From an uncultured Hyphomicrobiales bacterium (GTDB lineage Bacteria > Bacteroidota > Ignavibacteria > Kapaibacteriales > UBA2268), in the NCBI GenBank assembly GCA_964454975.1, contig CAYVVD010000008.1:52915-116914 (forward strand): 64,000 nt of DNA, written 5' to 3'. Both the position numbers and the translations under genes were made by a program. Below, piece by piece: positions 44,904-61,388 of the stretch. The notes beneath the pieces were generated by a model. It had not been told where the DNA came from. It saw nothing but the letters and a program-made list of their open reading frames with translations, and ran no database searches. Every line of letters starts with the position of its first letter. The first letter of the stretch is position 1.

Positions 44904-44928
44904 AGTTAATCTCTTGATAAGAATGTGA

Positions 44929-46146: not shown

Positions 46147-46480
46147 CTGCGAATTCTTGGTTAAATTTCCGCAAGATAATTAACTCGTTTTAATAATAGA
46201 GTGAAAGTTTTCCACAAAGAATAGGAGGAGGGAAGGCTAAATTATAAAACTAATAAATATTAAGAATCAGATAACTTTGTCTATTATTTTTCAACCCATA
46301 ATAGTCAAATTCAAAATGAAGGAATGAGTAAAAAGGGGTATTTGATACCACGAATTTATATATTTTAATCTATCCTATAAAGAAATTCAATGATGATAAA
46401 CAAATTAATTAGTAAGCCTGAATTCACTTGACTCCCTAAGAATTCAGAAGTTATATAGAAAGTTTAATCGATATTATTTA

Positions 46481-46511
46481 AAACCAAAGGGCTTCTCTTA
46501 TTGAGAAGCCC
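46481..46511 (-). terminator. Rho-independent terminator downstream of the 46521-48614 lipoprotein gene
   Basis: A 9-bp perfect stem (GGGCTTCTC / GAGAAGCCC) with a 5-nt loop. On the minus-strand transcript it is followed by a U-rich tract (UUUGGUUUUAAAU). Confidence 0.6.
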
Positions 46512-46520
46512 GGGCTTCAA

Positions 46521-48614
46521 TTATTTTATTGTCAGGCTAAAGTCCGAATTTTGAGCACATTTGAAAGTAACTAATTCTATGGAGCAGTCATCAGGTTTAT
46601 ATGGAGTATAAGTATATGAAGTACTTGTAATCAAATCACATATTTCGCTGCCTGATTTTGAAATCATCCAACCATTTCCAACATTTGAACCACTTAATAG
46701 AATATTACTTAATTTAGCAATTGAATGGCCCTGTCCAATATCTTCGCCTTCATATTCAGTTTTAGTAGTAACTTCAAAGTCAAAATCTACAATTTTCGAA
46801 GGATTTACTTCTTTGTCAAATTCAATCCGCAATTTCCTGTTCATAATATGATTCATCTTTGAGTATGTAACTGTCTCAGTAGCTGTGCCTTCGAGAATTT
46901 TACCTTTCATTTCAAGCATCATTTTTTGAGCGCCATAGGCCATAAGTTCAACACTTGTATTGCTGCCATTTTTGCAATGGGTTATATATTCCGCATCAGC
47001 GCCTAAATAAAAAGTAATTTCTCGTTGCATCTTAGGTTGAAGGGTAAAATGCAAATCGTAACCATCCTGGTAGTTTGCGCCATCCCAAATTTCTAATTCC
47101 ATACGTGCGTCGAATTTCTCAGTCGAGACAAATAGTGAGTTTAAATCCATTTCCAATTTAAAGTTATTAGTTCCGGGACCTGAATTATATGTAGTTGATT
47201 CATCAAAAAGATTTTCACCGGTCTCCTGGTTATAAATTCTAAGATTTAAACTAAGTGTTTTGGAATTTTGCTCCGCATTATATATTGGTAAATCAAATCT
47301 CAAATATTTAGTGGAATCAGGCAATACGTCGCATACATCAGTATTTGGGAACACCCATTTATAACCATGTTGTGCGTTTTTGTCATATTCCATAGCAATA
47401 GAATAAGTTTTGCCGGCTGAAGATTCAACAATAAAAGATAACTCCCCTAATGTCTTATTAATCGGCATCCCAAATGTGTGCAAAGCTCTGCCGGATGGCA
47501 CAACTTTTTTAGGAAATAAAATTTGGTAGGCTTCAGTTAATGATTTTTCTTTCATCAGCCAATCAAATTCTTTCCATTCATACATAGATTCGCCACTAAT
47601 ATTTTGTGGATTGTGAATTAACAATTTAACACTAATCTTAGCAGCAGTGACTAAGTCAATTTCATATCCAACAACGAGAACTGCATGCCCGCCAACTCCG
47701 GGATAATCAAGACTGAAAACTATCGGTTTGTCTTCGTCAAGATTTTTAATAATTTCATCTAACATATTTGTTTTTGATACGAAAGTAGATGTTTCGCATT
47801 CCACATTACCATAAATACTCATCGCAGCAGGGAGCCACTTTTTGAATGAGTATAAGCCAAGGCCTTCGTTTAGAGTTGAATGCTCCATGTATTTCACGAA
47901 ATCAATCACTCTGACATCTTTATTTCGGTTACCTGCAGCTGTGTATGCACGTGCAAGCATGGTAGCACATGTAGCCCAGCAACTTCCTTCTGGTTGCTCG
48001 TAATAGGGCATTTGAAGTATCTTCTTTTGGGGAGCATCTGATAGTTTTTCACGGTCAGCCCAACTCAAATTCAATCGTGTATATCTATTACCTGATTGAA
48101 TTGTGTTGACATTACCCACTTTGGGAGAGCTACTTGGCGCTTTGAATTTGCTTGTTAATAATCCGCTTGAAGCATCATAATCGAAATCTATAAGTTCACC
48201 ATAAATTTGTTCCTGGGAGTCCTCCGGAGAATAAAATAATAGAACAATATCGTCTTTTACTAAATCCGGCTTAAGTATTAAACTAAAACCAAATGTAATC
48301 TCACCTTCCATTTTGGAAAAATCAAAAACCAAATCCTTGCTGCTGTTGAAGTATCTTTCATCATCAAGCAATGCAATTGTAATTTTTTCGTTAGAAATCC
48401 CGGAATTGTCTTCCGGGTTGACTTTGAAAGTCGTTCCATTAGTAAATTCAAGAATAATCTCGCTACCTTTGTAATCAGCGCTTTTCTCCTCGGCAATTTT
48501 CTCTTTAATTGTGTTGTTGTTCGGCTCTTCGTCATCATTTCCAATTATTCCCTCACAAGACATCAAAGTAATGAGCATTGAACTCATCAATAAAAACTTA
48601 ACATAAATATTCAT
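46521..48614 (-). CDS. Large lipoprotein with a central papain-fold (peptidase C39-like) cysteine-peptidase domain
   Basis: Signal peptide with a lipobox (LMSCEG). A catalytic-Cys box (PEGSCWATCATMLA) and a His box (GGHAVLVVGYE) are typical of the Peptidase_C39_2 fold. Beta-rich regions flank the core. Confidence 0.6.
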   Translation of the reverse strand: MNIYVKFLLMSSMLITLMSCEGIIGNDDEEPNNNTIKEKIAEEKSADYKGSEIILEFTNGTTFKVNPEDNSGISNEKITIALLDDERYFNSSKDLVFDFSKMEGEITFGFSLILKPDLVKDDIVLLFYSPEDSQEQIYGELIDFDYDASSGLLTSKFKAPSSSPKVGNVNTIQSGNRYTRLNLSWADREKLSDAPQKKILQMPYYEQPEGSCWATCATMLARAYTAAGNRNKDVRVIDFVKYMEHSTLNEGLGLYSFKKWLPAAMSIYGNVECETSTFVSKTNMLDEIIKNLDEDKPIVFSLDYPGVGGHAVLVVGYEIDLVTAAKISVKLLIHNPQNISGESMYEWKEFDWLMKEKSLTEAYQILFPKKVVPSGRALHTFGMPINKTLGELSFIVESSAGKTYSIAMEYDKNAQHGYKWVFPNTDVCDVLPDSTKYLRFDLPIYNAEQNSKTLSLNLRIYNQETGENLFDESTTYNSGPGTNNFKLEMDLNSLFVSTEKFDARMELEIWDGANYQDGYDLHFTLQPKMQREITFYLGADAEYITHCKNGSNTSVELMAYGAQKMMLEMKGKILEGTATETVTYSKMNHIMNRKLRIEFDKEVNPSKIVDFDFEVTTKTEYEGEDIGQGHSIAKLSNILLSGSNVGNGWMISKSGSEICDLITSTSYTYTPYKPDDCSIELVTFKCAQNSDFSLTIK

Positions 48615-49072
48615 TAGTTACCTCAGAATGTAAAATTAAATCCGTTGAAATTATGAAAGTTCGCTCAATTAAAAAAGCAAATAATACAATCGTATGCTTT
48701 TACTAAGCCTTTGAAAAATAAAGACTAACGCCATTGTCCGATTAATATTGTTCCCCTGTGCTCTTTTACACGACGGCAATGAGATTAACTCAAAATTCAA
48801 GAGATATTTAGTTTTTGAATTTCAAAAAAGAACAGAATTTGGATATTAATTTTTGATATTATGACAATGAAAAAAGTTGTCGGGGTTAGTCAGTATAAGT
48901 ATTTAGCTGCTTTGCAAGAAACTGACCCAATTATATTATTGAAACAGGTTAATTGGAGACAATCCTCTGATTTGGCAACAGGATTGGAGTTGTCATAATC
49001 CGTATATAGAGGAATTTATGCTTACAATATCTGAGATATACTTACGATTCTAATGCTATTCCCAAAGATTAA

Positions 49073-50014
49073 ATGTATAATCGATTTATGATGAAAAGTA
49101 ATATTATAAAAGGTCTTTTAACAGTACTGCTCATCACGGGGTGTAATTATATTGAGGATGAATCCGAGAAGAAGGTGGTGGACTTTACTTTGAAACGAAC
49201 ACAAAATGCAATAGATTCTAATGATTATAACCCGTCAGAAAAATTAAAAGTAGCTATTTCTGCTATAGTATCGCCCCGGGAGACATTTATTTACTATGAA
49301 GAATTACTTGACTATATATCAAAAAAGGTAAATAGCCCAATAGAGATGAAGCAAAGAAAAACGTATAGTGAGGTGAATCAGATGCTGCTGAACAATGAAG
49401 TAGACATGGCATTTATTTGTTCAGGAGCTTACATAAAAATCAATGAAACGAATCAGGTAGAATTATTGGCTATACCCGTTTGCAATGGTAAACCATACTA
49501 TCAGGCATATATTATCACCAATAATCAATCAGGTATAGAAAAATTTGATGATCTTGAAGGTAAATCCTTTGCATTTACCGACCCCCTTTCAAACACAGGA
49601 AAACTCTATGCCGAGAAACGACTGCACGAATTGAATTTGTCTTCTGAAACGTTTTTTTCTTCGACCATGTATACACACGCACATGATATTTCCATCCAGT
49701 TGGTTTCAAAAATGGTTGTTGATGCAGCTACTGTTGACGCGCTGATTTATGATTATTTAGAAAAATTCTATCCTGAACGGGTTAAAAATATCAAAATAAT
49801 CGAAAAGTCAGAGTATTTTGGTATACCACCGGTTGTGGTTCCGGCTTCAGTTCCTGACGAGTTAAAAAAAGAATTAAAATCAATTTTTCTTTCCCTTCAT
49901 AAAGATTCAATTGGAAGTAAAATTTTGGATAAATTACTGATTGATCGTTTTATCGAAGGAAACGATGAGAATTACGACAGTATTCGTGAAATGCAAAAAT
50001 TAGTCAAGCAATGA
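49073..50014 (+). CDS. Periplasmic solute-binding-protein-like lipoprotein (PhnD/SsuA-type fold), the likely sensor partner of the downstream histidine kinase
   Basis: Lipobox (ITGC) and a type-2 periplasmic-binding fold. Its stop overlaps the histidine kinase start. Confidence 0.65.
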   Translation: MYNRFMMKSNIIKGLLTVLLITGCNYIEDESEKKVVDFTLKRTQNAIDSNDYNPSEKLKVAISAIVSPRETFIYYEELLDYISKKVNSPIEMKQRKTYSEVNQMLLNNEVDMAFICSGAYIKINETNQVELLAIPVCNGKPYYQAYIITNNQSGIEKFDDLEGKSFAFTDPLSNTGKLYAEKRLHELNLSSETFFSSTMYTHAHDISIQLVSKMVVDAATVDALIYDYLEKFYPERVKNIKIIEKSEYFGIPPVVVPASVPDELKKELKSIFLSLHKDSIGSKILDKLLIDRFIEGNDENYDSIREMQKLVKQ

Positions 50015-51516
50015 AAAATCCTTTGTATATACCCCTATTCTGGAAATTCTCTATTGCAATTACCGGAACAGTTGTTGTATTTGGGCTTATCAATTTATAT
50101 TTTACGAATTATGCTGTATATGATTTATTCGAAAGCGAGCTAATCAGACATGGTAAAATAACTGCCACAAGCATTGCTGAAAGAAGTGTAATTCCAATTG
50201 CTTATGGGGATTTAGCTGCATTAGATTTTATTGTAACCGACCAAAAGAAGATTGATCCGGGCATTGCTTACTTATTTATTATTGATAAAGACGGGCAATT
50301 AATAGCCCATACATTTGATCAAACTGTTCCACCTGAACTTTTAAAAGCGAACAAGGCATCTATAAACGATTCCGTTTACACTGTTATAATTGAACCAAAA
50401 AGCAATCCTAATATCAAGATAAGGGATCTGACGGTGCCAATTATGCAGGGCAATCTGGGTGTTGTTCGTATTGGGATGTTCGAAGAAAACTTTTTAAAAA
50501 GTATTCACAAAACCACTCGCATATTTCTCGTCATGGTATTGATTTTTTTAATTTTGGGAATACTTGGGGCATTCTTTTTCTCATATATCATAACCACCCC
50601 CTTGAAAGCAATAAATGATATTTCCGGAAAAATTGAGCTGGGTAATTTGGACTTGCAAGAGGAAGATTTTGAAGTTGTATTAAACAAGTTCGAACATGTA
50701 AAATGGAAGAATATATTAAATATTAAAGACGAGATAGATGTATTAATCAAAAGTTTTGGAGAAATGGTAACCAGGCTCAAAAGTACCTATTCTGAGCTTC
50801 AAAAAACGCAATCCTCTTTGTTCCAGTCAGAAAAACTGGCTTCTCTCGGTACTTTATCTGCAGGGATCGCCCACGAAATAAATAATCCTATTGCAGGTAT
50901 TCAGAATTGTGTAAGACGCTTACGGGAAGCCCCGGAAAACATCAGGCAAAATATTTTGTATCTGGAAATTATAGATGAAGCTCTAAAAAAAGTAGAAAAA
51001 GTCGTACGCGGGTTACTGGATTTTAGTAGAAAACCGGATATGCATTTGACCAAAACAAGTATTAATTCAATAATTGAAAATGTTTTATTATTGGTTTCCT
51101 ATAAGTTGGAAAAGTCGGGAATTGCCGTAATCAAAAATTATAATCACAATAATTTAATGGTTAATGCCAGCGCTAATCATTTTGAACAGGTAATATTAAA
51201 CTTAGTATTAAACAGCATTGATGCAATTGATGAAAAGAAGATGGCCGATCCATCTCACACTGGTGAAATCATGTTTAAAATTAAGGAGACATCAAAATCC
51301 GTTGAACTTGAGATTTCAGATAATGGAATTGGGTTGCCTAATAAACACTTAAAAGAGATTTTTAACCCTTTTTTTACAATGAAAAAAGTAAGACTCGGCA
51401 TTGGATTGGGACTGGCGGTAAGTTATAGCATTATTGAGCAACATAATGGTGAATTAACAGTCAGGGAGAACAGCATGAAAGGATTAACATTTTTAATTTC
51501 ACTTTCAAAAAATTAG
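50011..51516 (+). CDS. Sensor histidine kinase
   Basis: Two TM helices flank a periplasmic domain. Then HisKA (SAGIAHEINNP) and HATPase_c (N, G1, G2 boxes). Confidence 0.88.
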   Translation: MKNPLYIPLFWKFSIAITGTVVVFGLINLYFTNYAVYDLFESELIRHGKITATSIAERSVIPIAYGDLAALDFIVTDQKKIDPGIAYLFIIDKDGQLIAHTFDQTVPPELLKANKASINDSVYTVIIEPKSNPNIKIRDLTVPIMQGNLGVVRIGMFEENFLKSIHKTTRIFLVMVLIFLILGILGAFFFSYIITTPLKAINDISGKIELGNLDLQEEDFEVVLNKFEHVKWKNILNIKDEIDVLIKSFGEMVTRLKSTYSELQKTQSSLFQSEKLASLGTLSAGIAHEINNPIAGIQNCVRRLREAPENIRQNILYLEIIDEALKKVEKVVRGLLDFSRKPDMHLTKTSINSIIENVLLLVSYKLEKSGIAVIKNYNHNNLMVNASANHFEQVILNLVLNSIDAIDEKKMADPSHTGEIMFKIKETSKSVELEISDNGIGLPNKHLKEIFNPFFTMKKVRLGIGLGLAVSYSIIEQHNGELTVRENSMKGLTFLISLSKN

Positions 51517-51517
51517 A

Positions 51518-52879
51518 ATGATGAATAATGGAGCATATATCTGGGTTGTTGATGATGAGCGTATCGTGCGCGTATCACTGGCAGATGATCTTAGAGATGC
51601 AGGTTACAAGGTTAAAGAGTTTTCTAATGCAAATTCAGTATTGTCGGCATTCTCAACCAATGAATTTCCTGATATTATCATCACTGACATAAAAATGCCG
51701 GGTATTGACGGAGTTGAACTTTTGAAAAAAATTAAGGATATAAACAACAATATACAGGTATTAATGATGACAGCATTTGGTTCAGTCGAAAATGCTGTTG
51801 AAACTATGAAACTGGGGGCATACGACTATATCTTAAAGCCATTTAATAAGGATGAAATACTTCTTAATATCATAAAAATCCTGGAACTGAAAAAATACCG
51901 GGAAGAAAACAAATTGCTGAAAGAAAATATTGCAGCGAAGTATGACTTTACTAAATACATTGGAGATAAAAAGGATAATAACCAACTGTTCGACCTGATA
52001 AAATTGGTTGTTCATAAAGATACCACAGTATTAATAACCGGAGAAACCGGTACAGGAAAAGAATTAATAACTAATATAATTCATTATAACAGTGAAAGAA
52101 GAACGAAACCATTTATAAAAGTAAGCTGTGCCATTTTAGCCCGTGATATTTTTGAAAGTGAACTATTTGGTTACGAAAAAGGGGCATTTACAGGGGCACA
52201 GGAAAAAAATATTGGCCGCTTTGAACGTGCTCATGGCGGTACACTCTATTTGGACGATATTGACGATATTCCCCTTGAATTACAAGTGAAATTATTGCGG
52301 GCACTGGAAGAGAGGGAAATAGAGAGATTAGGAGGTGCTCAAACTATTAAAATTGATGTCAGGCTTATTGCTTCTACCAAAAAAAATCTTCTCCAACTTG
52401 TTCAGAAGGGCAATTTCAGAGAAGACCTTTACTACCGTCTTAATGTTTTTCCCATCAACCTTCCTCCATTGCGGGAACGTCATGATGATATAAAAATTCT
52501 GATAGAACATTTCATGAGGCATTTTTCAACTAATCCTGATATTTCTATTACTTCTGAAGCTCTGGATGTACTGCTTAATTATCCTTTTCCGGGTAATGTC
52601 AGGGAGTTGAGAAATATCATGGAGCGACTGGTCCTGTTGGCTCCTGGTGGAATTATCGAATTAAAGCACATACCAGGTGAACTCATTAACCGCGAACTGA
52701 TTCATCCATTCCTTTCTGTTGGTACTAAACCGCTAAACGAAATGTTGACTGAATATGAATCAATCATGATCAGGCAAGCATTGCAAAAAGCGAATAACAA
52801 CAAATCCCGTGCTGCAGATTTGTTGGGTATTCCTGCTACTACACTTTACTCCAAAATAGATAAACTAAAAATTTCATAA
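51518..52879 (+). CDS. Sigma54-dependent response regulator (NtrC/Fis family: REC, AAA+ sigma54-interaction and HTH domains)
   Basis: REC domain, then an AAA+ region with GETGTGKE Walker A and the ESELFGYEKGAFTGA motif (GAFTGA is the sigma54-contact loop). A C-terminal Fis-type HTH follows. Confidence 0.92.
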   Translation: MMNNGAYIWVVDDERIVRVSLADDLRDAGYKVKEFSNANSVLSAFSTNEFPDIIITDIKMPGIDGVELLKKIKDINNNIQVLMMTAFGSVENAVETMKLGAYDYILKPFNKDEILLNIIKILELKKYREENKLLKENIAAKYDFTKYIGDKKDNNQLFDLIKLVVHKDTTVLITGETGTGKELITNIIHYNSERRTKPFIKVSCAILARDIFESELFGYEKGAFTGAQEKNIGRFERAHGGTLYLDDIDDIPLELQVKLLRALEEREIERLGGAQTIKIDVRLIASTKKNLLQLVQKGNFREDLYYRLNVFPINLPPLRERHDDIKILIEHFMRHFSTNPDISITSEALDVLLNYPFPGNVRELRNIMERLVLLAPGGIIELKHIPGELINRELIHPFLSVGTKPLNEMLTEYESIMIRQALQKANNNKSRAADLLGIPATTLYSKIDKLKIS

Positions 52880-52899
52880 TTAGTATTGTATTCTAAAAA

Positions 52900-52948
52900 C
52901 TACGAGATATCATTTATTTCGACGAAATCTCGTAGGTTTTTTATTTAT
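52900..52948 (+). terminator. Rho-independent terminator after the sigma54 regulator gene
   Basis: CTACGAGAT...ATCTCGTAG 9-bp stem with an inner 6-bp stem (ATTTCG/CGAAAT). A GTTTTTTATTTAT tract follows. Confidence 0.65.
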
Positions 52949-52992
52949 AGGGTTACCTAAACTGAATTTGATGAAAGCTTCTATGAAATGGC

Positions 52993-53009
52993 TAAATGAC
53001 TGTCATTTA
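52993..53009. promoter_or_regulatory. 17-bp perfect palindrome TAAATGACTGTCATTTA, a candidate upstream activator (enhancer) site for the adjacent NtrC-type regulator
   Basis: Perfect dyad symmetry, about 60 bp upstream of the predicted -24/-12 promoter. Confidence 0.45.
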
Positions 53010-53068
53010 ATAATTTAGCTCAATATAAATTTGCTTGCCGCATTTTATTCAACTCTTTAAAAAAAATT

Positions 53069-53084
53069 GGTATATGTATTGCCA
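53069..53084 (+). promoter_or_regulatory. Sigma54 (-24/-12) promoter candidate: TGGTATATGTATTGCC
   Basis: The GG and GC dinucleotides are spaced exactly as in the TGGCACG-N4-TTGCW consensus. It lies ~30 bp upstream of the first ORF of the oxidoreductase operon and immediately downstream of a sigma54 activator gene. Confidence 0.55.
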
Positions 53085-53115
53085 TATATCGGCTGTGAAA
53101 CAAAATGCAACTAAA

Positions 53116-54348
53116 ATGAAACTGGAAAAAATACTAAAACTGAAAAAATTGATTTGCTTATCCCTGTTAACCGGAGTATTATTACAGGGGTGTGAATACG
53201 AGATAATACCCGGCCCAAATATTCCAAGAGAAACGGCCACAGTGGAAGCCATATATATCAAGACTGCAAATCCGGTTCTTTCCAATTCTCCAATATGGGA
53301 AGAAGCTAATTTTTCTAAAATAAGTTTATCTGACTTGATTACCGGTCAATCTTATGGTGATGGATACCGTGACGCAAACGGTACTATAAATGGCATTTCG
53401 GGTTTGGGCGGAAGTAATCAAGTTGGGCTGACATTGAAAGCCATGTACGATGATGAATATATCTATATACTGGCACAATGGAACGATTCGACATTAAACG
53501 TTCAATATAAAAATTGGTTGTGGGAAGACAATAAATGGTTTAGGGTTGGCAATACGGATAAACTCATAATTAAGTTTGAAATGGGAGAAATGAAAGATGT
53601 ATGGCAATGGAGCGCCGCACTTACTGAACCGATTGGTTACGCAACAGATGGTATTGAGGAAGAAAATATATTTAAGCCTGATGAAGGAGAATTGACTTTC
53701 GAATATTTTAGCAACGAATTGTCAAAACCGATTTTTGAGTGGGATGGTGAGGCGCCAATATTTACAAAACCCAGTGGATTCCCTGCAATTTTAGATCCTG
53801 CTTACTTTATTGCAGGTACAACCGATTACATAGGAGATCCTTCAGTCGGCAGAGTTTTATTTAAAGAAAACTGTATTGCCTGCCATGGGAATTATGGAGA
53901 AAGTGGTTTTAACCGCGTCGGTTACGGAGAAAGTCTCGACCCAGAGAAGTTGAACAGATGGAGCAGGAAGACTATGGATGATTTTATCCGCTCCGAAACA
54001 CATGATGGGAATATTGTATTTAGTACTCTCGACTATATTGACAAAGCAAATCTATTTGCCTACATACGCGGAGCAGGAGGAATCCCGGGATTCAGATTGC
54101 AAGAACCTTCGGGGAGCGCTGCCGATGTAGAAGTACAAACATTTATATCACTTGTGAAAGTAAACCCGAAAAATACTAATTATGAAGTTATGTTTAAACG
54201 AAAACTCCAAACCGGAATGCAAGACGATGTTCAGTTTAATCCGGAAACTGTTCGAGTAAGGTTCGGTATCCTTTTATCTGATAACGACGACTTGAATTTT
54301 GTTGGAGCGTTAAATCAAGAATTAATATTCCTGGAATCAAAATACTAA
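53116..54348 (+). CDS. Heme-binding lipoprotein. It has an EB_dh/DOMON-like (DMSO-reductase type II gamma-subunit-like) domain with an embedded c-type heme motif (CIACH).
   Basis: Signal peptide with a lipobox (LLQGC). A CxxCH motif appears at NCIACHGNYG. The EB_dh-like assignment comes from overall composition and motifs only (AMYDDEYIYILAQWND ... VRFGILLSDND). Confidence 0.55.
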   Translation: MKLEKILKLKKLICLSLLTGVLLQGCEYEIIPGPNIPRETATVEAIYIKTANPVLSNSPIWEEANFSKISLSDLITGQSYGDGYRDANGTINGISGLGGSNQVGLTLKAMYDDEYIYILAQWNDSTLNVQYKNWLWEDNKWFRVGNTDKLIIKFEMGEMKDVWQWSAALTEPIGYATDGIEEENIFKPDEGELTFEYFSNELSKPIFEWDGEAPIFTKPSGFPAILDPAYFIAGTTDYIGDPSVGRVLFKENCIACHGNYGESGFNRVGYGESLDPEKLNRWSRKTMDDFIRSETHDGNIVFSTLDYIDKANLFAYIRGAGGIPGFRLQEPSGSAADVEVQTFISLVKVNPKNTNYEVMFKRKLQTGMQDDVQFNPETVRVRFGILLSDNDDLNFVGALNQELIFLESKY

Positions 54349-54353
54349 AAACA

Positions 54354-54734
54354 ATGAAGAAGTTCTACAAAATACTACCGGCATTTATATTGCTTATTTT
54401 CACCTTAGCTTCGTGTGAGAGTGTTGTTTATATACCCTCCGGAGAAATACCTGCCAATCTTAGCTATAGTGAAGATGTATTAGCAATTTTTAACAGGAGC
54501 TGTAATAGAGGAGGCTGCCATAATTCGGGGGGGGTGCCACCGGATCTGTCGCCTCAAAATGGATATAACTATATGGTTTATGGTGGTATGATTGATACTG
54601 CCAACCCGGAAAACAGTTTAATATATCTAAGTATGAACGATCTAAAAAATCCGATGCCTCCGGAAGGATTACTTTCGGTTTACGAGAGAAGTATTGTCCT
54701 GGGATGGATCCAACAAGGAGCAAATAATAATTAA
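54354..54734 (+). CDS. Small lipoprotein with a PSCyt1-like (Planctomycete-type cytochrome c-like) domain and an atypical CNRGGCH (Cx4CH) motif
   Basis: Lipobox (LASC). The C-terminal MPP...WIQQGA region matches the PSCyt1 tail. The canonical CxxCH is replaced by Cx4CH. Confidence 0.5.
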   Translation: MKKFYKILPAFILLIFTLASCESVVYIPSGEIPANLSYSEDVLAIFNRSCNRGGCHNSGGVPPDLSPQNGYNYMVYGGMIDTANPENSLIYLSMNDLKNPMPPEGLLSVYERSIVLGWIQQGANNN

Positions 54735-54753
54735 CTATAAAATCTGTAAAATC

Positions 54754-55626
54754 ATGAAAGAACAAAATTTTCTCATATTGATCCTCGCGTTTGTAATTTT
54801 AACTTTTCCCATCGTTGCCCAAGACCTGATGGATGAACTGGACGCGGAAGTAGGCGAGCAAACAGAATATGCAGCTTATACATTTAAGTCTACACGTATT
54901 TTGAATGGCCACTCCATTGAGAGGATGCAAGAAAGCCAGCTCGATTTCAGAATTAACCATCGATTTGGTGAGTTGAATTCAGGATTCGAAGAGCTTTGGG
55001 GACTTGATAATGCCCTGATAAGTTTCAGCCTTGAGTATGGTATTACTGATTGGGTAATGGTCGGCCTTCGCCGAAGTACTTCTCAGAAAACCTATGATGG
55101 ATTTACCAAATTCACATTAATACGCCAGTCAACAGGAGCAGTTACAATGCCTGTTGCGATTTCCTATCTAACTGGAGTATCACTTCCATCAATCGAATAT
55201 AATGATCCTACAAGAGAAGATCTGCTGAAGCACAGACTGTCTTTTACTCACCAGATTTTAGTAGCACGAAAATTTAACGAAGAATTTTCGTTGCAGTTTA
55301 CTCCTTCATACGTTCACCATAATCAGGTTGACGAGGGATGGAGCAACGATGTTTATGCGCTTGGTATCGGTGGCAGATATAAATTCTCACGGAGGGTTGC
55401 CTTTATGTTTGAATACTTTTATTCGAGCGAAACAAGCAAACATGAAGAATTATATAATCCGTTATCGTTAGGGTTTGATATAGAAACCGGTGGCCATGTA
55501 TTCCAATTGTTTATTTGTAATTCAAAATCAATGGTTGAGAGCGAAGTTGTTGGAGGTACATTTAGCGATTGGGGTAAAGGGGAAGTGTTTTTCGGATTTA
55601 ATATCAGCCGGGTTTTTGCCCTGTAA
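54754..55626 (+). CDS. Outer-membrane beta-barrel-like protein (DUF5777-like)
   Basis: Signal peptide, alternating amphipathic beta-strand pattern, and C-terminal ...GFNISRVFAL. Start is taken at MKEQNF. Confidence 0.5.
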   Translation: MKEQNFLILILAFVILTFPIVAQDLMDELDAEVGEQTEYAAYTFKSTRILNGHSIERMQESQLDFRINHRFGELNSGFEELWGLDNALISFSLEYGITDWVMVGLRRSTSQKTYDGFTKFTLIRQSTGAVTMPVAISYLTGVSLPSIEYNDPTREDLLKHRLSFTHQILVARKFNEEFSLQFTPSYVHHNQVDEGWSNDVYALGIGGRYKFSRRVAFMFEYFYSSETSKHEELYNPLSLGFDIETGGHVFQLFICNSKSMVESEVVGGTFSDWGKGEVFFGFNISRVFAL

Positions 55627-55671
55627 TAGTCAAAGCAACATTATTTATTAATATTAATTTTAGGTTTAATC

Positions 55672-56223
55672 ATGATGAAAATAGTAATTACGGTAGTTCT
55701 AATGTTTTTTGGTTTGAACGCTGTTCATGCTCAGAAGTACATTACTAAAACTGGTGAAATTGAAATCTTTTCGGAAACATCCTTATTCACTATTGAGGCT
55801 GTTAATAATAGCGTGGCAAGTATACTAAATACTGATAATGGTGAGATAGTTGTTTCCACGCTTGTCAGATCATTTGATTTCGAAGAGGCACTTGTCGAAG
55901 AGCATTTTAATGAAAACTACATGGAGTCTCACAAATATCCTAAAGCTTCCTTCAAAGGAATTATTTCTGATTGGAATAAAGTGGATATTTCGAAAGACGG
56001 CACCTATAATTTGACTGTTAAAGGGGACTTAACTCTTCATGGAACCACAGTTAAATTATCGGAACCGGTAAAAATTGCAATAAAAAAGGATAAAATAATT
56101 GGAAACACAACTTTTATCGTTTCGCTCAAAGCTCATGGAATACAAGTGGAAGAAAGTTACAAGGACAGGATTAAAGATGAAGTTGAACTGAAAGTCCATT
56201 TTGAATATAGTCCTCATAAATAG
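55672..56223 (+). CDS. YceI-family (polyisoprenoid-binding) periplasmic protein
   Basis: 183-aa ORF with a signal peptide and the YceI-like 8-stranded barrel motif pattern. Confidence 0.75.
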   Translation: MMKIVITVVLMFFGLNAVHAQKYITKTGEIEIFSETSLFTIEAVNNSVASILNTDNGEIVVSTLVRSFDFEEALVEEHFNENYMESHKYPKASFKGIISDWNKVDISKDGTYNLTVKGDLTLHGTTVKLSEPVKIAIKKDKIIGNTTFIVSLKAHGIQVEESYKDRIKDEVELKVHFEYSPHK

Positions 56224-56256
56224 TCAAATTTTTGAACAAACTATAAAAAAGATCAA

Positions 56257-56688
56257 ATGAAAAAACTGCTTAAAATATTCCTAATAGTACTGGCTGTTGG
56301 TATCTTAGCCGGTGTGGCAGGGGTTTATTACGTATTCAATAAACCGGAAAGAAACATCGCTAAAGAGGAATCAGCATTGGTCACAAGTGCTGAAGAACTC
56401 TACCAATTGTTCAGTAATGACGAAACGAAGGTTTATGGAGAATACGGTAATAAAATACTTGAGGTAGAAGGCGAAATCGTTGAAGCAAACAATGCAGGCG
56501 GTGCTGTAACAATTGTTTTGAACGACCCGATGGAGGGGGTTACTTGTACGTTTGATAGTTTGTATTCTGCAAATAATCCGGATAAAATTGAGCAATTGGT
56601 TGTGGGAAAAACAGTAAGGGTAAAAGGGAAGTGTGACGGTTTCGATATGATACTGGGTGTTGTCCTTACCAAGTGCCTTATTCTTTAG
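56257..56688 (+). CDS. Membrane-anchored OB-fold (tRNA_anti-like) protein
   Basis: N-terminal TM helix, then a small beta-rich domain with the GEIVEANNAGGAVTIVL pattern. Confidence 0.5.
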   Translation: MKKLLKIFLIVLAVGILAGVAGVYYVFNKPERNIAKEESALVTSAEELYQLFSNDETKVYGEYGNKILEVEGEIVEANNAGGAVTIVLNDPMEGVTCTFDSLYSANNPDKIEQLVVGKTVRVKGKCDGFDMILGVVLTKCLIL

Positions 56689-56793
56689 ATATGGTTTATT
56701 GCGAGTAATTGAGACACCTATGGACATCGAATAATTATAATTTCATTTTTGATCTTAAAGCAGACTTTTTTTGAAAAAATTAATGTAATCAAT

Positions 56794-59310
56794 ATGAAAA
56801 TTCAAAGAAGAGATTTTATAAAAACATTAGCCATAGGTGGCTCCGGATTCTTATTCTTTCGACCTTCTCTGGAAGTATTTGCCGATTTTGACAATACTGC
56901 CAAGCCCATGGGCATTGAGGATGGGGAGTGGATCCCGTCAACTTGTCAGGGCTGCACTACCTGGTGTTCGGTTGAAATTTTCGTAAAAAATAAAAGAGTA
57001 ATAAAAGTTCGTGGGAACCAATATTCAAGTGTAAATCCCGGTTATGTATGTCCGCGTGGACATTTGATTCCTCAAATATTATATGATCCGGACAGGTTAA
57101 AAACACCACTAAAAAGGACAAATCCTGTAAAAAGCCGACACGCAAACCCAAAATTCATCCCTATTACCTGGGATGAAGCACTTGATGAAATCGCAGACCA
57201 GTTAATAGCACTAAGAAATAATGGGGAATCGCACAAATTCGGCGTTTTCAGGGGCAGGTACAGTTACTCGCGGGATATAATTTACACTGCAATACCAAAA
57301 ATTGTTGGTTCTCCTAACAGTATCGCACATAGTTCGAGCTGTGCTGAGGTCGAAAAATCCGGGGCATTCTTCACCGAAGGTTTTTGGGATTACCGGGATT
57401 ATGATTTGGCCAATACCAAATGCTGTGTGCTCTGGGGAGTGGATCCAACCCGGTCTAACCGACAAGTGCCCGGGGTTATGAATAGATTTCCCGACTTATT
57501 GGAACAGGCAAGCGTGATTACTATTGACCCGGTGCTCACAACGGCGGCATCAAAATCAAAATACTGGCTGCCTGTAAAACCCGGGTATGATGGTGCACTG
57601 GCTTCTGCTATTGCTCACGAAATTATGGTGGACGGATCATGGAATAAGGAATTTGTGGGTGATTTTACGGATGGAACCAACCGTTTTGTTACCGGTGAGG
57701 AAGTGAACGAAAGTTTGTTTCAGGAGAATTATAGCAATGGCCTGGTTAAATGGTGGAACCTGGAGCTAAAAGATAAACCTGCTTCCTGGGCAGCATCTGT
57801 TTGTGGCATTTCGGCTTCGCTGATAAAAAACGTAGCCATGGAAATGGCAAAAGCAGCCCCTAATGTTATTGTTTGGATGGGGCCAGGCCCCGTTATGTCG
57901 CCTAAAGGAACATACACCGCTATGGCTATTCATTGCCTCAATGGTTTGCTGGGTTCGGCTGATAACGAAGGAGGTTCCATTCGGCACGTCAAACAAAAAG
58001 TAAATGGTATACCAGATTATTCGGATTACCAGGATGATATTGCCAAAGCAGGGGCTTCGTACCAAAAAATCGACCAGAGCGGATATCTTGACCTTCCAGC
58101 ACTAAATAATGGAATATCTGGAGGCGGGGTGGTCACAAACAACGTGCCGGATGCCATGCTTGCAAAAGACCCTTACGAAATGAAAGCCGTAATTGGTTAC
58201 TGGAACAATTTTAATTTTTCCGGTACAGGTACCAGACGATGGGACGAAGCCATGGCTAAACTTCCCTTCTTTGCACACATCACTACGCATGCCTCAGAAA
58301 TGACACGCTTTGCAGACATCGTGTTGCCTGCTGCTTGTCATGCCGGTGAAAAATGGTCGTACCTGAAAAATTTTGGCAATACGTATTCAAGTATTTCTAT
58401 CCAGCAACCTCTTGTTGAGCGAATGTTTGATGTATATGCCGATGAAAATGAAATTTGCTGGAAGCTGGCTGTAAAACTCAAAGAAAAAGGCTTCTCAAAT
58501 TTATATGATTATTACTACAACGAATTTAAAGATCCTGAAACGGGCGCAAACCCAACCAACGAACATGAATTTGCCCTGTATGCCACAAAATACATGACTA
58601 AACCTTCATGGGATTTACTTCAAGGCGGATGGGATGAATTTAAGGAAAAAGGAGTGAAAAACTTCGGGCCTTATGAATTCCGCTCAAAATGGGAAGACTT
58701 TGGAACTGTCTCAGGGAAGTTTGAATTTTATTCTGAAACATTGAAAAAGGCACTGGAAGGCCATGCTGATAGACATTCAGTAACAGTAGATGAAGTTTTA
58801 GAAGCATGCAAATACGATGCCCGGGGCGAGTTGGCTTTCGTACCGCATTTTGAAGCACCCAGCCGTTGGGGCAATACCTCAGATTATCCGCTTGATTTTA
58901 TAGATGCTAAATCCCGCTTAAACAGAGAAGGAAGAAGTCAGAACAGCCCCTGGTACTATAGTTTTAAACGTTGTGATCCGGGGGATGAAAATCAAGAGGA
59001 TCTCATCAAAATCAATCCGCTTGATGCTGAAAAATATGGTATAAAAGATGGGGATATGGTCAAACTTATTACCGTGGAAGGGTTCATGGTTGGAAAAGTA
59101 AAATTGTGGGAAGGAATAAGACCCGGGACAGTGGCTAAAAACTACGGTATGGGTCACAGCGCTTACGGAAAATTTGCCTCCGAAAATTTTGAACTCGGCC
59201 TGGCCCGGGGCTCAAACAATAACGATTTCCTGCCGGCAGATTACGATAGGATATCGGGAAGTACAGCGAGAAACGGAGGTTTTACGGGAGTTAGAATTGA
59301 AAAAATTTAG
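56794..59310 (+). CDS. Molybdopterin (bis-MGD) oxidoreductase catalytic subunit with a Tat signal peptide (PsrA/ArrA/TtrA-like)
   Basis: Twin-arginine signal MKIQRRDFIKTLAIGG. The N-terminal [4Fe-4S] motif is CQGCTTWCS...CPRG (Cx2Cx3C...C), followed by MopB and molybdopterin-binding regions. Start is taken at the ATG at 56794. Confidence 0.9.
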   Translation: MKIQRRDFIKTLAIGGSGFLFFRPSLEVFADFDNTAKPMGIEDGEWIPSTCQGCTTWCSVEIFVKNKRVIKVRGNQYSSVNPGYVCPRGHLIPQILYDPDRLKTPLKRTNPVKSRHANPKFIPITWDEALDEIADQLIALRNNGESHKFGVFRGRYSYSRDIIYTAIPKIVGSPNSIAHSSSCAEVEKSGAFFTEGFWDYRDYDLANTKCCVLWGVDPTRSNRQVPGVMNRFPDLLEQASVITIDPVLTTAASKSKYWLPVKPGYDGALASAIAHEIMVDGSWNKEFVGDFTDGTNRFVTGEEVNESLFQENYSNGLVKWWNLELKDKPASWAASVCGISASLIKNVAMEMAKAAPNVIVWMGPGPVMSPKGTYTAMAIHCLNGLLGSADNEGGSIRHVKQKVNGIPDYSDYQDDIAKAGASYQKIDQSGYLDLPALNNGISGGGVVTNNVPDAMLAKDPYEMKAVIGYWNNFNFSGTGTRRWDEAMAKLPFFAHITTHASEMTRFADIVLPAACHAGEKWSYLKNFGNTYSSISIQQPLVERMFDVYADENEICWKLAVKLKEKGFSNLYDYYYNEFKDPETGANPTNEHEFALYATKYMTKPSWDLLQGGWDEFKEKGVKNFGPYEFRSKWEDFGTVSGKFEFYSETLKKALEGHADRHSVTVDEVLEACKYDARGELAFVPHFEAPSRWGNTSDYPLDFIDAKSRLNREGRSQNSPWYYSFKRCDPGDENQEDLIKINPLDAEKYGIKDGDMVKLITVEGFMVGKVKLWEGIRPGTVAKNYGMGHSAYGKFASENFELGLARGSNNNDFLPADYDRISGSTARNGGFTGVRIEKI

Positions 59311-59321
59311 GGTTTAGAATT

Positions 59322-60395
59322 ATGGCGCAAAAAGCGATGGTTATAAATTTACACAACTGCGTTGGTTGTGGTGCTTGCGGAATTGGATGCAAGGTAGAAA
59401 ATAATACCCAAATAAGCAATGATAAAACAACTTTTAATTGGGCTGATTTCCATGTGATGAACAAGGGTACTTTTCCCGATATAAAATACACTAATTATCC
59501 GGTACTTTGTAACCACTGTTCAGATGCACCTTGTGTTGATGCTTGCCCTTTGGAAGAAAAAGCCATTTTTAAGACCGCGGATGGTTTAACTATGACCAAT
59601 GAAGAGAGATGCATTGGATGTCAATCATGCATAGTAGCATGTCCGTACAGTTCAAGAGATGTTAAGAATGATGATGTTCAATATTCCATTATAAGCTTTA
59701 ATGAACCCGATGAAAAAACACATGATTATTGGGGATCATCAATCCCTTTCATCAAAAATGGTTCATCTAATCCGAAAGAAGTGGCTCAACTGACACAGAA
59801 TAAGCCTCCTTATGCAAACGATTATGAACATGAGGATTACAATGCTATAAGAAAATCGGGTGTAATAGAGAAATGTATATTTTGCGAACATCGCACCAGG
59901 AAAGGTGAACTACCGTATTGTGTGGTTGTATGCCCTTGCAATGCAAGGATTTTTGGTGATATAGATGATCCGGAAAGTGAAGTTAGTAAATTGCTGGCAA
60001 AGTATGAAGCCAAAACCTTTAAAAATAACAAAGGTGAGTTCCTTGCGAAGAACGAAAAAGGTACTCAGCCAAATGTTTACTACATACGCGATAAGGAAAA
60101 CGTAGCAACCAGTATTGTTGAAGAAAAACACATAGAAACGCAGTTTAAAGTGTATCCAAATCCTGCAAGTACGAACTTGAATATTGAAGTTTTTCTTGAA
60201 ACTAGTGATTTCATTTCAATTGATCTATATGATATTTCTGGAAGGGTTGCCTTGAATATTGTAAATAACGAGTTTACCCCTGCAGGAAACATTAAATACA
60301 ATGCGTCGCTTAATAATCTGCAATCAGGTACTTATATTTGCAGAGTACAAGTTAAAAATGTTTCTCAGGCGCAGACTGTAATTGTTACTCGATAA
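59322..60395 (+). CDS. 4x[4Fe-4S] ferredoxin-type electron-transfer subunit (PsrB/DmsB/NrfC-like) fused to a C-terminal T9SS sorting domain (CTD)
   Basis: Four Cys clusters (CVGCGACGIGC; CNHCSDAPCVDACP; CIGCQSCIVACP; CIFCEH...CVVVCPC). There is no signal peptide. The last ~84 aa (from 60141) are a type-A T9SS CTD: KVYPNPAS, IDLYDISGRVA, LQSGTYICRVQVKNVSQAQTVIV. Confidence 0.85.
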   Translation: MAQKAMVINLHNCVGCGACGIGCKVENNTQISNDKTTFNWADFHVMNKGTFPDIKYTNYPVLCNHCSDAPCVDACPLEEKAIFKTADGLTMTNEERCIGCQSCIVACPYSSRDVKNDDVQYSIISFNEPDEKTHDYWGSSIPFIKNGSSNPKEVAQLTQNKPPYANDYEHEDYNAIRKSGVIEKCIFCEHRTRKGELPYCVVVCPCNARIFGDIDDPESEVSKLLAKYEAKTFKNNKGEFLAKNEKGTQPNVYYIRDKENVATSIVEEKHIETQFKVYPNPASTNLNIEVFLETSDFISIDLYDISGRVALNIVNNEFTPAGNIKYNASLNNLQSGTYICRVQVKNVSQAQTVIVTR

Positions 60396-60400
60396 ACGTC

Positions 60401-61060
60401 ATGGTTATGAAAAAACCGGAAATTGAAGCTCAAATATTTAACCTTTATGCTGCATTATTTTGTGAACCTCAACAGGAACGTGATGATAATCTGCTAATAT
60501 TGGAGACTCTTGAATCTTTGCAATGTGAATTAAGTATGCGGTTCAGGGAGTTTACTAGCCTTAAAGAAACGTTTTTACAATTCGATCTCCAAAGTTTATT
60601 GATTGATTACACACGCATATTCATCGGGCCTTTTCACGTTGTAGCTTATCCATATAGTTCGACATACTTTTCTGAAGGGGTTAATACACTTTACAATGAA
60701 ACCACAGCATGGGTAGAGCAATTCTATAGAACCTGTGGTTTATCTTTTCAAAACACTGTGAAAGATATGCCTGATCATATTGCCGTAGAATTGGAATTTC
60801 TGTATACGATTAAGTACAATACAAACAATTTATTAAGAGAAGGGAATAAAGAACGTGGTGAGCTCTTGAGAAGAAAGTATTCTGAATTTATTAACAGTCA
60901 TTTTGGCATCTGGGCGCCCAGGTTATGTGACATGGTGGTAAGTGGAGCAAATGACACATATTATGCAGAGCTTTGCAGATGGCTTAATGGTTTTATCAGG
61001 TATTATTTAATGCCAACGATCAATACTTCGAAAACCATTGATGGATCTTGTGTTGGCTAG
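60401..61060 (+). CDS. TorD/DmsD-family redox-enzyme maturation chaperone
   Basis: 219-aa ORF with TorD-family motifs (YAALFCEPQQ, LIDYTRIFIGP, MPDHIAVELEFL). Confidence 0.78.
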   Translation: MVMKKPEIEAQIFNLYAALFCEPQQERDDNLLILETLESLQCELSMRFREFTSLKETFLQFDLQSLLIDYTRIFIGPFHVVAYPYSSTYFSEGVNTLYNETTAWVEQFYRTCGLSFQNTVKDMPDHIAVELEFLYTIKYNTNNLLREGNKERGELLRRKYSEFINSHFGIWAPRLCDMVVSGANDTYYAELCRWLNGFIRYYLMPTINTSKTIDGSCVG

Positions 61061-61277
61061 AGCGAAGATTTTTCTTTGTTATTAGTTGAAAAGTGAGTTA
61101 ATTAGAAAAGCTCCGAGCTGCCTTGCCTTTTTAGAGTAATGCAGCCTATGGGACAGGCTGGAAACAGCTTGTCCTCCCGATTCCCGCTTATGATAGTCGG
61201 GATGAATTGGAAAGGAGCAGATATTTTTTATATAAAAGTGCTTCATTTGTTTTTAACAAGTGTTGATGCTATATATT

Positions 61278-61318
61278 ATTGTGCCACTCGGCCTGAATAT
61301 ATTCATTAGTGGCACAAT
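61278..61318. promoter_or_regulatory. 11-bp perfect inverted repeat ATTGTGCCACT-N19-AGTGGCACAAT, upstream of the tauE-mobAB-moeA genes
   Basis: Read directly from the sequence. The half-site resembles a TGGCAC-type element. A protein-binding operator is plausible. Confidence 0.4.
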
Positions 61319-61388
61319 TACCGAGCGGGCAATGTCCGTTAATGTATAAATATCTGTCTTCTTTAATGTTACAATAAAAAATTGAAAG

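Follow-up and report, generated by a model that had tools for sequence, protein, structure and literature searches.

Two putative haem c lipoproteins, one with a cytochrome domain in an EB_dh-type sandwich and one with a stretched haem motif, encoded in a predicted arsenate-respiration operon

Introduction

The electron donor to the respiratory arsenate reductase ArrAB is known only in a few Proteobacteria, where it is CymA or ArrC. The 64,000-nucleotide stretch of DNA considered here (hereafter the window: positions 52,915 to 116,914 of contig CAYVVD010000008.1, assembly GCA_964454975.1, deposited as an uncultured Hyphomicrobiales bacterium and placed by GTDB in the Bacteroidota; Ignavibacteria; Kapaibacteriales; UBA2268) contains an arrAB operon that encodes neither of these proteins and that begins with the genes for two lipoproteins, which we refer to as P1 and P2. 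A first-pass annotation of the window had singled out this pair as atypical haem lipoproteins, leaving it undecided whether P2 binds haem at all. The question posed by the locus is which cofactors the two proteins carry and whether they could supply ArrAB with electrons. Our reading, to which we assign a probability of roughly 0.6, is that P1 and P2 are haem c lipoproteins that serve the electron supply of ArrAB; that each of them is a haem c protein is a narrower proposition which we hold with a good deal of confidence. Both judgements are drawn from sequence comparison and structure prediction.

Architecture of P1

Both open reading frames (ORFs) lie on the plus strand where the first-pass annotation had placed them, at 53116-54348 and 54354-54734. 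The features of the first are as follows.

53116-54348, plus strand: P1, a predicted lipoprotein of 410 residues; a class I cytochrome c domain is inserted into its EB_dh-fold beta-sandwich.
53179-53193, plus strand: lipobox LLQGC with the lipidated Cys26, read from the sequence; all 12 family members have this Cys.
53575-53604, plus strand: FEMGEMKDVW, where a loop of about 12 residues with the canonical Met ligand of haem b is missing (hhalign gap against SGAFTADMLSGEP of P0014).
53803-54105, plus strand: inserted cytochrome c domain, residues ~230-330, with boundaries from hhalign against P0014.
53872-53886, plus strand: CIACH, residues 253-257; all 12 members share C253, C256 and H257.
54001-54003, plus strand: His296, candidate distal haem ligand, invariant in the 12 family members.

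P1 had been likened to the haem-b-binding gamma subunit of the type II enzymes of the dimethyl sulfoxide reductase family, and as far as the fold is concerned this likeness holds. The Pfam family EB_dh (PF09459) matches P1 at 39.8 bits against a gathering threshold of 33.3, the match covering positions 3-57 of the 236 in the profile, and the predicted structure shares the beta-sandwich of EbdC (2ivf_C; score 19.6 with 187 residues aligned) and NxrC (7b04_C; 18.5). CBM9, DOMON and cellobiose-dehydrogenase cytochrome domains score between 8 and 12 against the same model, and small class I cytochromes c score about 8 on a separate part of it. The family itself is small: a word-indexed homologue search gave between 10 and 13 relatives, and in a set of 5.8 billion clustered proteins the family amounts to about 13 clusters, every one of which carries the Pfam EB_dh tag. 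Twelve members could be aligned, and across them the invariant residues include C26, C253, C256, H257 and H296.

The separate part of the model is best understood by comparison with P0014, a canonical EB_dh lipoprotein in which the sandwich is uninterrupted. When residues 232-333 were removed from P1, profile-profile alignment with hhalign related the remainder to P0014 at a probability of 98%. The segment YLAGTPSGSAADV is contiguous in P0014, whereas P1 reads YFIAGT, then about 95 residues, then PSGSAADV; since P0014 is unbroken at the point where P1 has these extra residues, the cytochrome c domain can be described as a clean insertion into a single loop. In two relatives, P0011 and P0012, the Pfam EB_dh match flanks the insertion on both sides, running from profile position 3 or 27 to position 233. 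The P1 family profile matches class I cytochromes c, among them CcoP (1.6e-9) and the cytochrome c subunit of the bc1 complex (1e-6), and Pfam Cytochrome_CBB3 aligns with residues 243-316 of P1 itself at 22 bits, the threshold being 27. The embedded CIACH that had been remarked upon is, then, an invariant c-type site, but it belongs to a whole inserted domain of some 100 residues and is not a lone motif. As for the second axial ligand, the position in the insert that aligns with the Met of the CcoP segment HAIMAAW, which we take to be the haem ligand of CcoP, shows N, S, R, T, Q or A across the family. His296, which precedes the usual Met position by three residues, is the one further candidate that is invariant, and our guess would be that the haem c of P1 is bis-His ligated by His257 and His296.

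Binding of haem b by P1 is a different matter, and here the earlier suggestion does not fare well. In EbdC-type subunits the haem b is ligated by a Met and a Lys (PMC8840923). The loop of P0014, SGAFTADMLSGEP (FTADM), aligns with that of NxrC, EEPFSPRMGDRQK (FSPRM), Met on Met, and this is the loop that is deleted at FEMGEMKDVW in P1; no conserved Met was found at this site among the P1 relatives. The computed alignments end before the region of the Lys ligand (at P0014 residue 261 for hhalign and at residue 294 for the NxrC alignment), so that the Lys position beyond them is one assigned by eye: it falls on Ala398, directly after the invariant Gly397, and is Ala throughout the clade to which this P1 belongs, a Lys being confined to some of the distant members. 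Among the 12 aligned members there is no invariant His or Met in the sandwich, and the NCBIfam gamma-subunit model TIGR03477, whose cut-off is 169.85 bits, gives P1 a score of 14.2. With the Met loop deleted, Ala at the inferred Lys position and no invariant His or Met in the sandwich, it is very probable that P1 has kept the fold of the gamma subunits without their haem b. The architecture of P1, a cytochrome c domain lodged within an EB_dh sandwich whose own haem site is very probably lost, is rare.

Several relatives appear to keep haem in the sandwich. P0011 and P0012 carry the inserted domain together with an extra haem motif (GCDAACH and GCEASCH, respectively) in the sandwich's canonical haem loop, and the gene for the dihaem variant P0012 adjoins a NapC/NirT gene. 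At three metagenomic loci (L020 3172-4401, L021 1968-3404 and L022 3287-4471) the protein in the position of P1 is an EB_dh lipoprotein without the cytochrome c insertion that has CYATCH, a CX3CH motif, in the loop from which the Met ligand comes in canonical EB_dh proteins; its EB_dh pocket is apparently of a kind that binds haem covalently. The P1 relatives can be set out as an evolutionary series, with haem in the sandwich only, in the sandwich and the insert, and in the insert only. An antisense ORF at 53049-53285, overlapping the start of P1, and another at 54490-54765, overlapping P2, were considered as genes and rejected, both being short and overlapping conserved coding sequence.

Architecture of P2

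54354-54734, plus strand: P2, a 126-residue lipoprotein resembling the monohaem cytochromes c FoxE, PccH and PSCyt1, with a CX4CH motif; it begins 5 bp past the P1 stop codon.
54405-54416, plus strand: lipobox LASC with the lipidated Cys21, invariant in 111 of 111 aligned members.
54501-54521, plus strand: CNRGGCH, residues 50-56 (Cys50, Cys55, His56).
54651-54662, plus strand: PMPP, residues 100-103, in which Met101 is the candidate distal haem ligand; it aligns with the 'MP' of cytochrome c6.

On its own P2 is nearly mute in database searches. It has no match in Pfam, in NCBIfam or among the sequences of the Protein Data Bank (PDB), and against PSCyt1 (PF07635, gathering score 22 bits), the family to which it had been compared, no match appears at E <= 0.1. 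A word-indexed search gave just 4 relatives, and the family surfaced with an exhaustive profile search, which retrieved 2450 cluster representatives at E <= 1e-3 and 494 at E <= 1e-10. Most are lipoproteins of about 125 residues, and some consist of 2-6 tandem copies of the domain. The P2 profile retrieves the multi-repeat proteins P0020, P0098, P0132 and P0075 at E values from 1e-34 to 1e-17, and the repeats of these four proteins score 67-153 bits on PF07635. Of the two families proposed for the pair, then, PF09459 matches P1 above threshold, whereas PF07635 recognises relatives retrieved by the P2 profile but not P2 itself.

The stretched motif noticed in P2 is strongly conserved, with Cys55 and His56 present in 111 of 111 aligned sequences and Cys50 in 110. 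It had been thought rare. Among 108 single-domain representatives, however, the closest relatives of P2, the site reads CX4CH in 85, CXXCH in 18, CX3CH in 2 and CX5CH in 3, and in P0058, P0062 and P0075 motifs of different length are mixed inside single polypeptides. A neighbour-joining tree of the family implies about 18 changes of motif length, a figure that should be read as an order of magnitude given how rough and noisy the tree is. Elsewhere in the domain, the column of Met101 holds Met in 86 of 111 sequences, and Met stands at or beside this column in 103; Trp118, in the tail WIQQGA (residues 118-123), is invariant in the alignment. The family profile matches FoxE (1.7e-5, with WIKQGAK in the alignment), hydrazine synthase alpha (9e-5) and cytochrome c6 (1e-3), in each case with the P2 motif aligned on their CXXCH, and the Met of cytochrome c6 that aligns with Met101 is presumably an axial haem ligand. 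Individually, 35 of the 111 single-domain members match Cytochrome_CBB3 at E <= 0.01 and 11 match PSCyt1. Sequence identity between P2 and the proteins of known structure FoxE (5mab) and PccH (4rlr) is 15-21%.

Attachment of haem c through CX4CH is established (PMC11492766); our own literature search on this motif in Bacteroidetes returned nothing. Since the Cys...Cys-His pattern is near-invariant and CX4CH interchanges with CXXCH at the same site, loss of haem from P2 is unlikely, and the choice that the first-pass annotation had left between a haem c site and a haem-free domain is resolved towards haem c by conservation, by motif interchange and by the matches to cytochromes. On these comparisons P2 is a divergent PSCyt1-type, FoxE/PccH-like monohaem cytochrome c domain with an expanded motif. 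That CX4CH is the norm among the closest relatives of P2 matters for genome-wide counts of cytochromes that use CXXCH alone, and the longer spacing raises the question of how it is handled by the maturation system of the Bacteroidota.

The arsenate-respiration operon

The genes around P1 and P2 place them in a predicted arsenate-respiration operon, with the order P1, P2, DUF5777, YceI, OB-fold protein, ArrA, ArrB and TorD-like chaperone, preceded by a sensor trio. Two related loci cited here for their orthologues, L001 and L011, are described in the next section.

49073-50014, plus strand: ArrX-like periplasmic oxyanion-binding sensor protein, first of the sensor trio (Pfam Phosphonate-bd, 2.4e-56).
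50011-51516, plus strand: histidine kinase (L001/L011 orthologues with HisKA/HATPase_c).
51518-52879, plus strand: sigma-54-dependent response regulator (L001/L011 orthologues with Response_reg/Sigma54_activat/HTH_8).
53068-53082, plus strand: TGGTATATGTATTGC, a sigma-54-type -24/-12 element and candidate operon promoter, 34 nt upstream of the P1 ATG.
54754-55626, plus strand: DUF5777 outer-membrane beta-barrel protein (Pfam DUF5777, 6.4e-91).
55672-56223, plus strand: YceI-like secreted lipocalin-type protein (Pfam YceI, 1.3e-13), found after DUF5777 in most of 80 loci.
56257-56688, plus strand: OB-fold (tRNA_anti-like) protein, last gene of the cassette (Pfam PF12869, 9.9e-15), its cassette position conserved.
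56794-59310, plus strand: ArrA, the molybdopterin-binding subunit of the respiratory arsenate reductase; it begins with a twin-arginine signal (888 bits to 6cz7).
59322-60395, plus strand: ArrB, four-cluster iron-sulfur subunit without a signal peptide (NCBIfam ArrB, 209.6 bits against a cut-off of 450; best family by far).
60150-60386, plus strand: C-terminal type-A sorting domain of the type IX secretion system (T9SS) in ArrB, residues 277-355 (Por_Secre_tail 44.7 bits, cut-off 27; TIGR04183 42.4 bits, cut-off 23).
60401-61060, plus strand: ArrD-like proofreading chaperone of the TorD/DmsD family for twin-arginine translocation (Tat) (NCBIfam TorD, 1.4e-13; Nitrate_red_del in orthologous loci).

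By similarity the enzyme is the respiratory arsenate reductase ArrAB. ArrA aligns with the ArrA of Shewanella ANA-3 (6cz7) over RGRY and the SSCAE Cys region, and the NCBIfam ArrA model is by far its best family at 1027.7 bits, the equivalog cut-off being 1600. The best PDB sequence match of the sensor is the arsenate-binding ArrX of Chrysiogenes (6x6b, 2.3e-57), with the arsenite-binding AioX at 1.6e-38. An identity as Arx, an arsenite oxidase, was rejected on the 888 bits of ArrA to its Shewanella counterpart and on a sensor nearer to ArrX than to AioX, a decision made without direct comparison to any Arx reference sequence. ArrB, having no signal peptide, would be expected to hitch-hike on the Tat signal of ArrA.

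Neighbouring genes of the operon are separated by 5-105 bp, with no terminator found between them. The kinase and regulator are 79-82% identical to their L001 and L011 orthologues. The element TGGTATATGTATTGC is intergenic, has the GG and GC at the correct spacing and lies past a hairpin and T-run 3' of the regulator gene; its location favours the 53116 start over longer versions of the P1 ORF, and the P1-P2 operon is probably sigma-54-dependent. Among ORFs of at least 100 residues in the window, a C-x(2-4)-CH motif occurs in P1, in P2 and in one 105-residue ORF (7345-7659) only; this last ORF aside, neither an NrfD-type subunit nor a cytochrome other than P1 and P2 was found in the 64 kb. The OB-fold protein has a hydrophobic N-terminal stretch, by our reading of its sequence an apparent membrane anchor. 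Downstream of the TorD-like gene lie TauE and molybdenum-cofactor genes. The G+C content is 0.34-0.41 over 46000-64000, a span that takes in the arr region with the genes upstream of it, and 0.46-0.48 over 42000-46000; the difference would be compatible with an acquired island.

Related loci and the DUF5777 cassette

Two contigs from microbial-mat metagenomes (L011 and L012) have the identical order of 13 genes, the ArrB sorting domain included, and a third related locus, L001 from a Roseivirgaceae metagenome-assembled genome (MAG), is instructive for what it has lost. L001 retains the sensor trio, a P1 that is 68% identical, ArrA, ArrB with its T9SS tail and TorD, and has no DUF5777, YceI or OB-fold gene. 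Its P2 (11173-11487) is decayed: the lipobox Cys is gone, the C-terminal third is missing and the motif reads CKAASSH, with Ser in place of the second haem Cys. As P1 is intact beside arrAB in this locus while P2 has decayed and the barrel is absent, P1 appears to track ArrAB and P2 to track DUF5777. The L001 ArrB gene holds unresolved positions (XXXX), and assembly error is possible for this MAG. ArrB with a T9SS tail is thus found outside the window at L001 14020-15039, L011 14570-15646 and L012 11674-12747.

More distant P1 relatives, 31-36% identical and assigned from MAG titles to Roseivirgaceae, Flammeovirgaceae, Bacteroidales and Bacteroidia, keep P1, P2 and DUF5777 together. At four loci (L002, L003, L007 and L008) these are followed by an NrfC-like iron-sulfur protein with a Tat signal, NrfD, a membrane protein and a cytochrome c, and at two others (L006 and L015) by YceI and the OB-fold protein. 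In L002, where the P2 motif is CAYSGCH, a 1038-residue ResB-CcsA fusion (16529-19645), a system II cytochrome c synthase, follows right after the cluster; this could be a general synthase or one dedicated to expanded motifs. The positional orthologue of P2 in L006 carries CVSCH. Upstream of the P1-type cassettes that stand alone in L006 and L015 are genes for a regulator of the FNR/CRP type, an 885-residue secreted protein without a family match and a protein of 342-365 residues, annotated as CarboxypepD_reg plus YceI in the L015 copy; these upstream genes (L006 4929-7586 and 8721-9818, L015 599-1627) hint at further cassette components.

We also sampled contexts from the side of DUF5777, which gave at least 560 metagenome matches; 80 loci (L019-L098) were inspected, of which the 53 with at least 600 bp upstream were used to count adjacency. 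An ORF of the P2 or P1 family ends less than 200 bp upstream of DUF5777 in 47 of the 53 and lies elsewhere in the cluster in 5 more. The usual cassette encodes a lipoprotein of about 330 residues made of three P2 repeats (CX4CH, CX4CH and CXXCH), a P2 of about 125 residues, DUF5777, YceI and the OB-fold protein, examples being L030 3428-7019 and L056 3584-6974; the P2 next to DUF5777 has CXXCH in 43 of 47. P1 is a rare occupant of the first slot, where it takes the place of the trihaem protein. The P2 relatives scanned showed no partner domain of the PSCyt2/PSD1 type, and no recurrent enzyme was seen among the genes that flank stand-alone cassettes. In L081 (4623-6768), the gene after P2 and DUF5777 encodes a Reeler-domain protein that bears a type IX sorting domain, a second instance of the module beside a predicted surface protein. 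DUF5777 has two conserved His motifs, NHRFG in 73 and GGH.FQ in 68 of 76 full-length metagenome homologues; invariant His residues would not be expected of a plain porin, and these might bind a metal or other cofactor. A profile search of the PDB with DUF5777 gave nothing meaningful, and the family is not named in any paper of the literature searched. As far as that literature shows, the DUF5777/YceI cassette, common in environmental Bacteroidota, is undescribed.

Discussion

The suggestion that P1 and P2 act as wires from a catalytic complex fits the context in which they are found, beside ArrAB and a DUF5777 barrel, and can now be given a more definite form. We propose that both would be c-type cytochrome lipoproteins of the outer envelope, each probably with one covalent haem, and that they would constitute the electron-delivery branch of an arsenate-inducible operon. 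P1 would be an EB_dh/DOMON-type sandwich that has lost its Met/Lys site and gained a complete class I cytochrome c domain in a surface loop; the sandwich may dock on the four-cluster ArrB (or on NrfC-like proteins at other loci) and hand over electrons, in a manner mirroring by analogy the seating of the EB_dh gamma subunit on the beta subunit of the type II enzymes. P2 would hold its haem through CX4CH, with His56 and Met101 as ligands, and work with the DUF5777 barrel. P1, P2, DUF5777, the YceI protein and the OB-fold protein might together carry electrons from the quinol side to ArrAB. Proteins of the YceI family bind isoprenoid quinones and lipids, and the YceI protein may connect the module to the quinone pool. 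The T9SS tail of ArrB predicts that ArrAB is at the cell surface, so the module would then have to supply an enzyme located at the outer membrane or outside it. The retention of P1 by arrAB in L001, where the cassette is missing, suggests that within such a module P1 is linked to ArrAB and P2 to DUF5777.

A number of observations weigh against this proposal and need careful consideration. The confidence of the P1 model is moderate (a mean predicted local distance difference test score, pLDDT, of 65), and P1 and P2 both fall below the Pfam thresholds for cytochrome families. The window encodes no quinol dehydrogenase as an entry point for electrons in its 64 kb. The sigma-54 consensus has 52 matches in the window where 55 would be expected, and TGGTATATGTATTGC itself has two mismatches; as matches are no more frequent than chance, the promoter call is one of position. 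The P1-type cassettes of L006 and L015 have no iron-sulfur protein nearby, which weakens the case for P1 docking on such a subunit. Lastly, the flanks of stand-alone cassettes are unrelated from locus to locus and arrAB is absent from many, whilst L020-L022 have the sensor trio and the cassette with no adjacent arrAB; a cassette that is found without arrAB would have a function of its own, not necessarily in arsenate respiration.

Two other accounts concern the cofactors. P1 might be a dihaem b/c gamma subunit whose sandwich binds haem b by non-canonical ligands beside the haem c, and the additional haem motifs in the sandwich loop of P0011 and P0012, as well as CYATCH in L020-L022, do indicate that this pocket takes haem elsewhere in the group. 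In the clade of the window's P1, however, the haem loop is missing and Ala stands where the Lys ligand is inferred, the sandwich has no invariant His or Met, TIGR03477 reaches 14 bits against a cut-off of 170, and the partner is ArrAB rather than a type II (NarG-like) enzyme, so we consider a haem b in this P1 improbable. For P2 one might imagine a haem-free protein in which Cys-x4-Cys-His binds a metal or forms a disulfide, and which assists the DUF5777 barrel structurally or as a chaperone. The silence of P2 alone in searches against cytochrome families, a Foldseek search of the PDB that found nothing and the minority status of CX4CH at the position next to DUF5777, where CXXCH prevails in typical cassettes (43/47), could all be cited in its favour. 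To accept it, one would have to set aside the conservation across the family of the Cys, the Cys-His and the Met of the PMPP region, the many exchanges of CX4CH and CXXCH at the same column on the tree and within single polypeptides, the matches of both the profile and the model of P2 to true haem c proteins, whose CXXCH falls on the P2 motif, and the documented status of CX4CH as a haem c motif (PMC11492766). P2 also decays where the barrel is lost, in L001, which argues that the intact motifs elsewhere are under selection, and a P2 devoid of haem seems to us very improbable.

The remaining alternative concerns function. Arsenic causes oxidative stress, and the cassette might serve envelope maintenance, through reduction of lipid radicals or handling of quinones and isoprenoids, and accompany arrAB without feeding it. 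This would sit well with a cassette that is widespread (at least 560 metagenome matches), mostly found alone among unrelated genes, and that has the YceI protein as a near-constant member; there is also a precedent, in that the YceI lipocalin BcnA and the cytochrome b561 LcoA form a system that guards the envelope against lipid peroxyl radicals (PMC9113575). What makes us doubt it is the arrangement at the arr loci. In the window, as in L011 and L012, the cassette separates arrAB from the promoter region, with gaps of 5-105 bp and no terminator; at the arr loci seen, the first slot holds the rare P1 and not the common trihaem protein; P1 stays by arrAB when the rest of the cassette is lost; and the operon encodes no other electron donor for ArrAB. 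An envelope-maintenance role is on balance unlikely, and a role of P1 and P2 as haem c lipoproteins in the electron supply of ArrAB remains the reading that we prefer.

If that reading is correct, the operon offers two specific candidates for a cytochrome donor to ArrAB, in a phylum different from that of the known donors. A broader proposal, that P2 and DUF5777, with P1 or the multihaem P2-repeat proteins and with YceI, form a system by which Bacteroidota transfer electrons to or across the outer membrane, is tentative at best, and we are similarly doubtful that the module is a true conduit through that membrane. Were it so, it would be a split counterpart of the cytochrome-porin conduits, and the His residues of the NHRFG and GGH.FQ motifs of DUF5777 could ligate a cofactor inside the barrel.

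The tail of ArrB may have consequences of its own, since it suggests that a cofactor-loaded, folded and Tat-exported molybdoenzyme complex is a cargo of the T9SS. Literature searches for an arsenate reductase or a molybdopterin oxidoreductase with type IX secretion returned nothing, and as far as the searchable literature shows a T9SS-tagged ArrB is undescribed. A Tat-exported arsenate reductase displayed by the T9SS would, if real, point to extracellular respiration of arsenate, for instance of mineral-bound arsenate, and would be new both for secretion and for arsenic geochemistry.

Comparison with known systems

The closest structural parallels to P1 are the gamma subunits EbdC and NxrC (PF09459), with which it shares the beta-sandwich. 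It differs from them in its deleted Met haem loop, in the Ala at the inferred Lys position and in the inserted cytochrome c domain, and also in being a lipoprotein with ArrAB as its putative partner and not a NarG-type enzyme. With the Met/Lys site absent and TIGR03477 far below its cut-off, P1 would share the fold of the family without being a member of it in the functional sense. P2 has its parallels in FoxE, the cytochrome of Fe(II) oxidation in Rhodobacter ferrooxidans SW2, and in PccH of Geobacter sulfurreducens, both of which are soluble and have CXXCH, whereas P2 is a lipoprotein with CX4CH whose gene is paired with that of an outer-membrane barrel. The MPP...WI..GA tail of PSCyt1 (PF07635) is shared with the P2 family, but P2 has CX4CH in place of CXXCH and is a stand-alone lipoprotein of the Bacteroidota.

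Amongst arsenate-respiring systems, that of Shewanella ANA-3 is the nearest: its ArrA is close in sequence, and both have a soluble, Tat-exported AB enzyme with a separate cytochrome donor and no ArrC anchor in the operon. The donor in ANA-3 is CymA, a tetrahaem quinol dehydrogenase of the NapC/NirT type, whereas the candidates here are the lipoproteins P1 and P2; here, too, ArrB has a T9SS sorting domain and regulation would be by a sensor trio of the ArrX type.

Conduits of the porin-cytochrome kind, whether Cyc2, a fused cytochrome-porin, or MtrCAB and PioAB, pair a cytochrome with a porin. The adjacency of a small cytochrome gene and the gene for an outer-membrane barrel (47/53 loci) is similar, and on our side this similarity is one of genes alone; no sequence relationship was found, and DUF5777 has only about 250 residues.

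There are also precedents for YceI-type lipocalins that are combined, as in the cassette, with cytochromes located beyond the cytoplasmic membrane. Cbp2D and Cbp2E of Cellvibrio and TERTU_2913 of Teredinibacter are extracellular redox proteins with cytochrome c and YceI-like domains (PMC8981238, PMC10916295), and X183 cytochrome domains are among the fold and sequence matches of P1 and P2; BcnA-LcoA provides a further case. All of these come from Proteobacteria, are single multidomain proteins or have inner-membrane b561 partners, and act in the activation of lytic polysaccharide monooxygenases or in the detoxification of lipid radicals. The cassette described here differs in that its components are encoded by separate genes, one of them for an outer-membrane barrel, and in that these genes lie, in the window, inside an arsenate reductase operon.

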